From NCBI GenBank assembly GCA_963721525.1, contig CAVRJL010000015.1:163672-227671 (forward strand): a stretch of 64,000 nucleotides of DNA, given 5' to 3'. A program made the translations under genes and the position numbers. The notes under the pieces are model-generated. The model was not told where the DNA came from. It saw nothing but the letters and a program-made list of their open reading frames with translations, and did no database searches. Below are positions 4,662 through 7,671 of the stretch, piece by piece. The stretch is from an uncultured Negativicutes bacterium. GTDB lineage: Bacteria; Bacillota; Negativicutes; JBAXTZ01. Within the stretch, counting starts at the first letter, position 1; every line of letters starts with the position of its first letter.

Positions 4662-5180
4662 TTAAATTTTCAATGAAAAATCAGCGTTTATTATCTTTCT
4701 TTTTAATAAGCTTTCTTGCACATCGATAATTTTTTGATTGCGAGATCCTCTATAAGCTAATTGTAAATCGCGTTCACTTTTTATGTATTTCCCATCTATA
4801 ATCCAATCCGTAAATTGTAATAATTTTAATATAGAAATATCCTTTTCTCCTAATTTCAATAATTGTTCATAACAATAACCTGTATAAATTAATAAATTAT
4901 ATTTCTTATTGTTTTTAATATAAGATGCTAAATTAAGCAACTTATACGCTTGTAAAAAAGGTTCTCCTCCCGAAAAAGTTACTCCACGTATTAATCTAGC
5001 TTTATCAATTATATTTATAAGTTCTTTTTCTTGAAATTCCTGTCCACCTAATAAACTATGTGTATCCGGATTATGACAATTCGGACAATTATGTAAACAA
5101 CCTTGAAAAAAAATAACCAATCTTAATCCTGGTCCATCAACTACACTTTCATTAACAATTCCTGATACTCTAATAAACAT
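4662..5180 (-). CDS. nrdG: Anaerobic ribonucleotide reductase activating enzyme (radical SAM)
   Basis: [20 protein letters not shown] (CxxxCxxC), [14 protein letters not shown]. Confidence 0.96.
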
Positions 5181-5206
5181 ACTTCCCCACATAAATTATA
5201 TCTTTA

Positions 5207-7153
5207 TTATTTATTCTTTATTTTAATAGTACTTTTTAAAGGGACACAACATATAGGACAACCATTATCTTGGATTAGCCCAAAGTATTTGCAATTTACG
5301 CAAAAATCAACCGGGAAATTTATTCCTGCATAACCTATATCGCAATTTTTCATATGCTTTAATAAATCTTCTACCGCTTCATAATTATTAATCGGTGAAG
5401 ATACAAGCTCTACATAACTTATATGTCCAGCATTCGTATATTTATGGAACGCTCCTTCAATCTTTATTTTTTCGAAAGCACTTATGTTGTATTTTACAGG
5501 AATATGAAAGGAATTTGTATAATAATCTTTATCAGTAATTTTGTCTATTATACCAAATTTTTCTTTATCAATCTTAACAAATCTACCTGCTAATCCTTCG
5601 GCTGGAGTAGCAAGAAGAGTATAGTTCAACTTATAATAATTTGTGTATTCGTCTGTTTTTTTACGCATATAAGATAAAATTTTTTGTCCTAATTTATGAG
5701 CGTCTTCATCTTCTCCATGGTGTTTTCCTTCCAAACCAATTAAAGTTTCTGCTAACCCTATAAATCCTATTGACAAAGAACCATTTTTTATGGCATTTTG
5801 TATATAACTATCTACTTTTAAATTTTCCGACCCTAAATATAACTTTTGTCCCATTAAAAAAGGCATATCTTTAACTTTTAATTTAGCCTGTATATTATAT
5901 CTATGAAATAATTGCCTGGCTGTAAGATTCAATATTTCATCAAGTAGTTTGAAAAATATATCTATATTCCCTTTGGCTTTAAGTGCAATTCTAGGTAAAT
6001 TTACAGTAGTAAAACTTAAATTTCCCCTACCGTCTGTTTGTTCTAATCCGTTTATATTGGAAATTACGCGTGTACGACAACCCATGTATGCTATATCTGT
6101 TCCATAAGCAGAATTAAAAGAAGAGTCCATAAAACTAAATGTAGGATTAAGTCTACGGGATGCAACTCTGATAGCTAACCGAAATAAATCATAATTAGGA
6201 TCTGACTTATTAAAGTTTATACCTTCTTTAATTCTAAAAATAATGTTAGGGAAAATAGGACTTTCTCCATGTCCTAATCCTTTTTCATAGGCCAAAAGAA
6301 TGCCTTTTGTTACAGCTCTGGCCGCAAAAGACGTTTCACATCCTAAATTTAAACTGGAGAATGGAACTTGAGCACCTGCCCTACTATGCATACTATTTAA
6401 ATTATAAATTAAAGCTTCCATAGCTTGATAAATTTCATTTTCATTAGCATTAAACATAAAAGGAGCCATATCGCGATCAAAAAAAGCAAAAGACTGTCCT
6501 CCATGCATATCGTTTTGAGAACTTTGCAGTATTATTGCTGCTAACGCTGTTGCCGAAGCTGGCCTTTTAGGCGAACGAATATAACCATGCCCTGTATCAA
6601 AACCTAATCGTAAAAGTTTTCCTAAAGGTATTTGAATACATGTAAGGGTTTTAGCATAAAAGTCTAAATCATGAATATGTATATCTCCATTAATATGTGC
6701 GTTTGCCATTTCTTCAGGTATCAACCTATGTAAATAATAAGCTTTTGATGCAACTGATGCTATTTGCAGCATTTTAGCTGAAGGAGAATTCGAAATATTA
6801 GCATTTTCTTTACTTGTTTCAATTAAAATTTCTGAAACAGCGTCCATCAAATCAGATTTACATTCTCGAATACGATTTCTACGGTTTCGATATAATATAT
6901 AAGCTTTAGCAGTTTTGGCATGTCCAGTATCTATAAGTATTTTTTCTACTGCATCCTGTATCTGCTCAACAGAAAAAATTTTTCCACTATATATGGTAGT
7001 TTTTAAATAATCCAGAACCACGCCAGTAAGCTCAATTGCTTGTTGTTTATTTTCTCCTCCTATATATTCGGCTGCAGCAAAAATGGCTCTACTTATTTTA
7101 TTTATATTAAATTCTACAATTCTGCCATCTCGTTTTTTTATATGCGAAAACAT
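5207..7153 (-). CDS. nrdD: Class III ribonucleoside-triphosphate reductase large subunit, C-terminal glycyl-radical loop absent
   Basis: N-terminal ATP cone (IKKRDGR), HIHDLDF, TLTCIQ, YMGCRT, GRGNLSFTTVNLPR, YYTNSFH, C-terminal Zn site CVNC..CPIC, then a stop with no RxxGY motif. Confidence 0.93.
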   Translation of the reverse strand: MFSHIKKRDGRIVEFNINKISRAIFAAAEYIGGENKQQAIELTGVVLDYLKTTIYSGKIFSVEQIQDAVEKILIDTGHAKTAKAYILYRNRRNRIRECKSDLMDAVSEILIETSKENANISNSPSAKMLQIASVASKAYYLHRLIPEEMANAHINGDIHIHDLDFYAKTLTCIQIPLGKLLRLGFDTGHGYIRSPKRPASATALAAIILQSSQNDMHGGQSFAFFDRDMAPFMFNANENEIYQAMEALIYNLNSMHSRAGAQVPFSSLNLGCETSFAARAVTKGILLAYEKGLGHGESPIFPNIIFRIKEGINFNKSDPNYDLFRLAIRVASRRLNPTFSFMDSSFNSAYGTDIAYMGCRTRVISNINGLEQTDGRGNLSFTTVNLPRIALKAKGNIDIFFKLLDEILNLTARQLFHRYNIQAKLKVKDMPFLMGQKLYLGSENLKVDSYIQNAIKNGSLSIGFIGLAETLIGLEGKHHGEDEDAHKLGQKILSYMRKKTDEYTNYYKLNYTLLATPAEGLAGRFVKIDKEKFGIIDKITDKDYYTNSFHIPVKYNISAFEKIKIEGAFHKYTNAGHISYVELVSSPINNYEAVEDLLKHMKNCDIGYAGINFPVDFCVNCKYFGLIQDNGCPICCVPLKSTIKIKNK

Positions 7154-7671
7154 TTATATTTTACCTGCTTTTGCTTTCATATTTTATTTCCCAATTGCAA
7201 ATATTTTACTATTAATATAAAATTTACTATGCTTTCATATTGCTTGCAAATTGAAAGCAAAACGTACACAAAATACTTTATCAATGCTTTATAAATTATT
7301 TTCCTTATTGCCTAACTTATTATTTCACCTCAATAAATATTACATATTTTCCGCCTTTCTTCTCAATTTAATAACCAAATTTTTAATAAAATCATTTGAG
7401 GGTTATACTTTTGTTCAATAAACAAATAATTTCACAAAATCTATCATTTCTTACTACTAAAAAATTTACTTATTTTATTGACTTATATGGTGTAAATATT
7501 TTATCGTAACGCAAACATTTGAAATGGCTTCTAACGGGATTTTTTTAATATGCAACACTTAATTTACTACTTTTATATCAGATATATATTAATAAAAAGA
7601 AAATATATAAACAACTCTAAAAACATATTTCAAACAAAATTTCTACATGTAAACTATATATAGCACTTTAA

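Follow-up and report, generated by a model that had tools for sequence, protein, structure and literature searches.

The class III ribonucleotide reductase (RNR) of this genome is encoded in two genes, one for a 648-residue NrdD body that ends without the glycyl-radical loop and a distant one for a 96-residue protein that carries the loop, and the two very probably make up one working enzyme. The body is truncated, the two proteins complement each other along the family profiles, and both are conserved under purifying selection. Judged by its sequence, the pair agrees with a class III RNR in every feature tested, apart from the glycine, which sits on another chain. The nrdD and nrdG genes lie in the window (the whole stretch of 64,000 nucleotides that was analyzed), and the loop gene lies outside it in the same source genome (G000).

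4662..5192, minus strand: nrdG, encoding the radical SAM activase; translation likely begins with the ATG at 5180
5207..7153, minus strand: nrdD body of 648 aa; has an ATP cone, a zinc site and the catalytic barrel (Cys172, Cys359) but no glycyl-radical loop
5207..5248, minus strand: leftover 13-residue tail and stop of NrdD; the end is at +13 after the last CPxC
5249..5302, minus strand: zinc-site cysteines C618/C621 and C632/C635, on the large subunit, from the alignment with full-length relatives
7651..7666, strand unassigned: degenerate NrdR-box-like site that precedes nrdD by ~500 bases; the 10-base core is intact, and 4 of 16 positions mismatch
Contig C6 18028-18318 (= L001 6029-6319), minus strand, outside the window: small loop gene, 96 aa, Gly72 in RRITGY; own ribosome-binding site and terminator

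The NrdD body and the separate loop gene

The body matches the NrdD families TIGR02487 (552 bits, cut-off 326) and PRK07111 (966 bits) in an NCBIfam-type profile search. It keeps the ATP cone (residues 4-93), both active-site cysteine regions (Cys172 and Cys359) and both zinc motifs (C618-C621 and C632-C635), as the earlier note had read from the letters, and also the GRGNLS stretch; the two cysteines and the zinc motifs align with full-length relatives. The C-terminus reads CPICCVPLKSTIKIKNK, followed by two TAA stops, and the protein covers the Pfam family NRDD at positions 1-527 of 562 only. It stops 13 residues past the zinc site, at the position of the radical glycine in close full-length relatives; this glycine comes 13 residues after the last CPxC in 23 of 23 full-length short-type NrdD rows. 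The adjoining nrdG is intact, as had been stated (TIGR02491, 139.8 bits, cut-off 126), and the gap from the first nrdD stop is the previously noted 26 bases if nrdG starts with the ATG at 5180, or 14 if it starts with the ATG at 5192. The absence of RxxGY near the end of NrdD also holds, now in all six frames of 5101-5400. A frameshift or read-through at this end was considered and is rejected, because no frame contains the motif and nrdG follows within 26 bases.

The probability that the end of nrdD reflects an assembly error or a local deletion, which the 16 contigs and 81% completeness of the genome (769 kb, ~31% GC) might suggest, is negligible. A 179-base contig of public run X4 (depth 3; the run may be the source sample itself) aligns to 5158-5336 without a single difference or gap and so crosses the junction, including the stop and the start of nrdG; in the four public runs compared, only short pieces were covered, and their small shares are uninformative on habitat. 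Furthermore, 41 of the 78 NrdD rows examined end without the loop, and both other same-family genomes share the truncation, which refutes an assembly error, a possibility that the earlier note had named.

As one alternative, that note had proposed that the enzyme is split and that a small protein from another locus forms the radical domain, and the genome contains a candidate for exactly such a protein. The motif RRITGY has a single copy in the genome, on contig C6, the five other hits being RxxG[FY] look-alikes in unrelated frames. The radical glycine absent from the barrel chain is found as Gly72 of a separate gene. The match of the 96-aa protein begins where that of NrdD stops: it covers NRDD positions 533-562 of 562, and within the 746 positions of PRK07111 the body ends at 709 and the small protein covers 710-743. 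This complementarity agrees with the proposed split, in which the small protein would carry the radical. The small protein matches NRDD but not the Pfam family Gly_radical and has no cysteine cluster; all 117 sequences aligned share Gly72, Tyr73 and Arg69. The genes for HydE and HydF, the [FeFe]-hydrogenase maturases, lie beside the small gene. On the same locus, L001:8009-9061 (minus strand) encodes a protein of 350 aa in which ~70 residues are repeated exactly; we take its C-terminal domain to resemble an NlpC/P60 peptidase.

It is extremely unlikely that RNA or protein trans-splicing or recoding makes a single chain from the two genes in the cell, which would leave no separate subunit. The arrangement in 13 loci of one family, where the small gene lies directly behind nrdD and before nrdG, would suit such joining; elsewhere it stands alone, and here each of the two genes has a contig to itself and lies far from the contig ends. 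A ribosome-binding site and a terminator belong to the small gene alone (1 hairpin found, 0.1 expected; a promoter scan nearby gave nothing above chance), and its product begins with a 60-residue domain that has no counterpart in full-length NrdD. An Rfam search of the window returned two tRNAs and nothing else, and NCBIfam and Pfam searches found no intein domain in either protein.

Selection, distribution and regulation in relatives

The source genome holds one nrdD and one nrdG. Neither a large nor a small subunit of a class I or class II RNR was found in this 81% complete assembly, from which another RNR could be missing for that reason; class III is thus the only class to be listed, a point on which the earlier note had sought an inventory. 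A radical domain of the pyruvate formate-lyase (PFL) type was likewise not found in the 81% complete assembly, the only Gly_radical match being a weak one inside NrdD, and neither was thymidine kinase; the sole dNK-family match over the cut-off is dTMP kinase, and ThyX is present.

With 769 kb, compared to 2.4 and 3.4 Mb in its same-family relatives, G000 is a strongly reduced genome, possibly that of a symbiont, and RNR has been lost in some endosymbionts (PMC10121223, in the portion available). Accordingly, nrdD could be viewed as a recent pseudogene of a shrinking genome fed with host deoxynucleosides, and the small gene as a leftover; a truncated-type nrdD broken by stops does exist in another relative (G182:C1:1648238-1649712, near a stand-alone small gene; that genome also has two NrdD of a different type, both intact). 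This view is nonetheless very unlikely to be correct. In both other same-family genomes (G001 and G002, 97-98% complete), NrdD likewise ends without the loop, so that homologs do end at the same point, and the small gene is flanked by the same neighbors as in G000. Between these two larger genomes, nrdD has a pN of 0.036 and a pS of 0.78 and the small gene has a pN of 0.053 and a pS of 0.73, values by which both genes are under purifying selection; no dN/dS ratio is given because the synonymous sites are saturated, and the low GC content of G000 inflates pS. A truncation common to both genomes at saturated synonymous distance does not fit the very recent inactivation that had been offered as an alternative to the split, and the low pN speaks against relaxed selection on nrdD. 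The catalytic and zinc cysteines are intact, the assembly has revealed neither thymidine kinase nor deoxynucleoside kinase while ThyX is kept, and G214, a single-contig genome, has the split enzyme only. The pseudogene reading is thereby largely refuted; a split and a selective constraint shared by same-family genomes indicate neither a pseudogene nor an assembly error.

Among 94 pooled genomes of the class (inferred to be Negativicutes), the small gene was found in 39 of the 40 with truncated NrdD, with G106, in which the loop is decayed and not cut off, counted as truncated, and also in 29 of the 54 that have only intact NrdD. The first panel (21 genomes) had it in 7/7 genomes with truncated NrdD and 10/14 with only intact NrdD, and the second (73 genomes picked at approximately one per genus from 301) in 32/33 with truncated NrdD and 19/40 others. 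The single miss is the truncated-only genome G254 (93% complete, 220 contigs), whose three congeners have the small gene. As for the 21 non-truncated genomes of the second panel without it, most of their NrdD tails match the tail profile weakly or not at all, and Pfam searches found no short-frame match in them either. Single-contig genomes include four that combine only truncated NrdD with the small gene (G214, G030, G082 and G190) and three with intact NrdD and the small gene (G055, G149 and G067). A class I or II large subunit was found in none of the five truncated-only relatives tested, one of them a single-contig genome. No P value is attached to the co-occurrence because kin are not independent.

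In the databases, the small proteins of relatives are labeled “anaerobic ribonucleoside-triphosphate reductase” or hypothetical, and the genera in their names, which point to Negativicutes as the class, include Selenomonas, Propionispora, Anaeromusa and Anaerosinus. A search of cluster representatives gave 173 matches, and nearly all of the 150 listed are 50 to 150 residues long; an annotated phage collection contributed 7 unannotated records that match the loop only. Two NrdD frames of ~1180-1200 residues, L017 (from G015) and G077:C96, carry a long central insertion that is probably an intein.

At 14 paralogous loci (L211-L224, seen from partial matches), the N-terminal domain of the small protein is kept without a TGY loop, for example, at L212:1446-1913, L215:1488-1775, L220:1427-1750, L222:1515-1865 and L217:1479-1706. 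Several of these in one family stand behind a gene for what looks to us like an Rrf2-type regulator, and in other families they lie between genes that we take to be TetR-like and efflux-like. Such paralogs could be radical-less competitors or regulators.

Regulation probably links the small gene to RNR even where the enzyme is complete. With the NrdR-box consensus, which is also given in PMC4009431 (as far as available), and up to 3 mismatches allowed per site within the first 210 bases examined at each gene start, box-like sites precede 21 of 46 small genes, compared to 0 of 61 other open reading frames of the same loci that served as controls. The small genes with boxes include those of the only-intact-NrdD genomes G098, G019, G146, G012 and G009; the small gene therefore probably belongs to the RNR regulon also beside intact NrdD. 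Only 7 of 50 nrdD upstream windows pass the same test. In G000, the small gene, like nrdD, is preceded by a box-like site (C6:18349), both having 4 mismatches; only 10 sites have an intact core, and these are two of them. A search of this 81% complete genome did not reveal nrdR.

Predicted fit of the two proteins

In the AlphaFold2 model (117 sequences), the N-terminal domain of the small protein is folded (residues 2-60), with a mean pLDDT of 88 for the whole protein. A Foldseek search of the model against the PDB gave no match at an E value of ≤0.001, and only the last 37 positions of the protein match solved NrdD structures, namely, the glycyl loop and tail of the P. copri and phage T4 enzymes. 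Modeled together with body residues 100-648, the small protein reached a complex score of 0.78, compared to 0.00 for the best of 3 controls, a mark attained by 116 of 157 solved pairs and 2 of 215 mismatched pairs; at least 97% of the contacts agreed between runs, and the pLDDT of the partner was at least 84. A pass is partly expected because the halves of a split gene resemble the solved one-chain NrdD, and the model supports the fit of the two proteins, which falls short of proof of binding.

In the predicted interface, Cys359 faces the loop around Gly72, and the small-protein strand 63-68 pairs with body residues 615-619, taking the place of the body's own last strand. The modeled contacts include body residues 118-119, 517-520 and 358-360, which by our reading of the available part of PMC11226230 correspond to the flap, substrate-loop and cysteine-loop regions touched by the P. 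copri radical domain. The model also predicts strand pairing between the leftover tail of the body (639-643) and small-protein residues 53-58. As no solved relative was found for the domain involved, likeness to known structures is a less likely source of this pairing.

According to the preferred two-gene reading, NrdG would place the radical on Gly72 of the small protein, which would dock on the body so that its loop reaches Cys359, and the radical would pass from Gly72 to Cys359 as in one-chain class III RNR; the folded N-terminal domain is predicted to hold residues 639-643. Radical transfer to the cysteine is established for the one-chain enzymes (PMC12662201 and PMC11226230, in the parts available). 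Compared to those of P. copri (8P23) and phage T4 (1H78), the present system has the same ATP cone, barrel, active-site cysteines, zinc site and nrdD-nrdG operon. Here, the loop and C-terminal tail come from a separate gene and the body keeps the zinc site. The small protein also has an additional domain of 60 residues, folded by prediction, that has no match among solved structures.

The small protein might instead bind NrdD as a regulator or structural plug without a working radical. The loop-less paralogs found in many relatives indicate that its N-terminal domain can serve without a radical, and it is kept beside intact NrdD, where catalysis has no need of it. Still, truncated-only genomes have yielded no other source of the glycine, the loop residues Gly72, Tyr73 and Arg69 do not vary, and the model puts the loop at Cys359, which makes a radical-free role very improbable.

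Resemblance to spare parts and history of the split

All 41 truncated NrdD rows keep a tail of 11 to 28 residues after the zinc site. In glycyl radical enzymes, the radical glycine is where oxygen cuts the chain (PMC13450708, in the part available). The cut in NrdD falls at that position, so the truncated bodies resemble the cleaved enzyme. A tree was built from the 78 NrdD rows after the loop and everything behind it had been removed. On this tree, the truncated/intact label has to change 12 times, compared to a mean of 26 for shuffled labels, and at least 8 of the changes are forced by strongly supported branches. These are LG+G4 quick trees, with long branches flagged at the outgroup; in the change counts, losses and re-fusions look alike, and transfer is outside the tree model. 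A single origin of the truncated short-type NrdD (17 truncated of 43 rows) was rejected with a p-AU of 8e-6, the group having been defined by the truncation trait, although the 78-row tree had been inspected beforehand. The tail type of the small protein is that of the truncated NrdD of its own genome in 21 of the 21 cases listed.

Two loci show decay of other kinds. In the G106 nrdD (L157), the loop is still present but decayed, with RRGTGY ahead of a diverged tail, in a genome that has a stand-alone small gene, possibly an intermediate stage of loss. At L225:770-1926 (G044), a gene presumed to be nrdR-like, a 43-codon nrdD remnant reading RRITGC and nrdG stand in a row, forming a decayed class III operon.

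The closest known counterparts of the small protein are the PFL spare parts GrcA/YfiD of E. coli and Y06I of phage T4, which are likewise small stand-alone proteins in which an additional N-terminal part precedes the glycyl loop at the C-terminus. YfiD duplicates a strand kept by cleaved PFL, and the retained strand is needed for rescue by YfiD (PMC8683613, available in part); here, similarly, strand 63-68 is homologous to the body's own tail, and both are placed in the model, with predicted geometry. The differences are that GrcA/YfiD acts on PFL and the small protein would act on NrdD and has no Gly_radical match, and that the N-terminal part is disordered in YfiD but predicted to be folded here (pLDDT about 90). 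Since its partner is genetically truncated, the small protein would be an obligatory subunit, unlike GrcA/YfiD. A loop gene beside an intact enzyme, which is the GrcA-type arrangement, is not seen in G000 but is the state of 29 of the 54 relatives with only intact NrdD. By these analogies the small protein would resemble GrcA/YfiD in its working, yet it is not a member of that family.

Other separate or small subunits are less similar. In the split class II RNR NrdJa/NrdJb, the C-terminal part is also a separate gene (PMC9669993, available in part), but the class and cofactor differ. The small subunits of BSS, HPAD and MASS are also small partners of a glycyl radical enzyme (PMC13450708, in part); they are iron-binding accessories with the radical on the large chain, in contrast to the small protein described here, which carries the glycine itself.

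The two-piece class III RNR probably derives from a GrcA-like spare part. The small gene would first have stood beside an intact NrdD and in the same regulon, and because of this the loop could then have been lost from NrdD repeatedly, as we infer to have happened many times. We lean, by a modest margin of belief, toward the small protein serving as a spare part beside intact NrdD and having been the ancestor of the split state. It would then be an NrdR-regulated radical cartridge that plugs into oxygen-cleaved NrdD, its N-terminal domain gripping the leftover strand, and NrdD would have become genetically “pre-cleaved” at the oxygen scission point at least 8 times, turning the repair part into an obligatory, exchangeable subunit. 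Alternatively, beside intact NrdD it may be an extra or regulatory radical module that has no repair role.

According to a 2026 review, to the extent available, pyruvate formate-lyase is the only enzyme with known spare parts (PMC13450708); the review calls the spare-part question open and does not treat class III RNRs in depth. No description of a split class III RNR or of an NrdD spare part was found in the literature covered, mostly papers outside subscription and without their supplements, where RNR sequence tables might bear on this result. The available parts of PMC9669993, PMC9531940, PMC13450708, PMC8683613, PMC12288474, PMC3019208, PMC11226230, PMC12662201, PMC4009431 and PMC2795772 mention neither.

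The spare-part question is directly testable, as cultured genera carry the small gene both beside intact NrdD and as the sole source of the loop. If the two-gene reading is true, the small protein would offer a 10-kDa natural substrate for structural work on NrdG, and what the databases list as short “anaerobic ribonucleoside-triphosphate reductase” proteins or as NrdD without the loop would be genuine parts and not fragments. The family would then document a route from a repair protein to a fixed subunit that has been taken many times.
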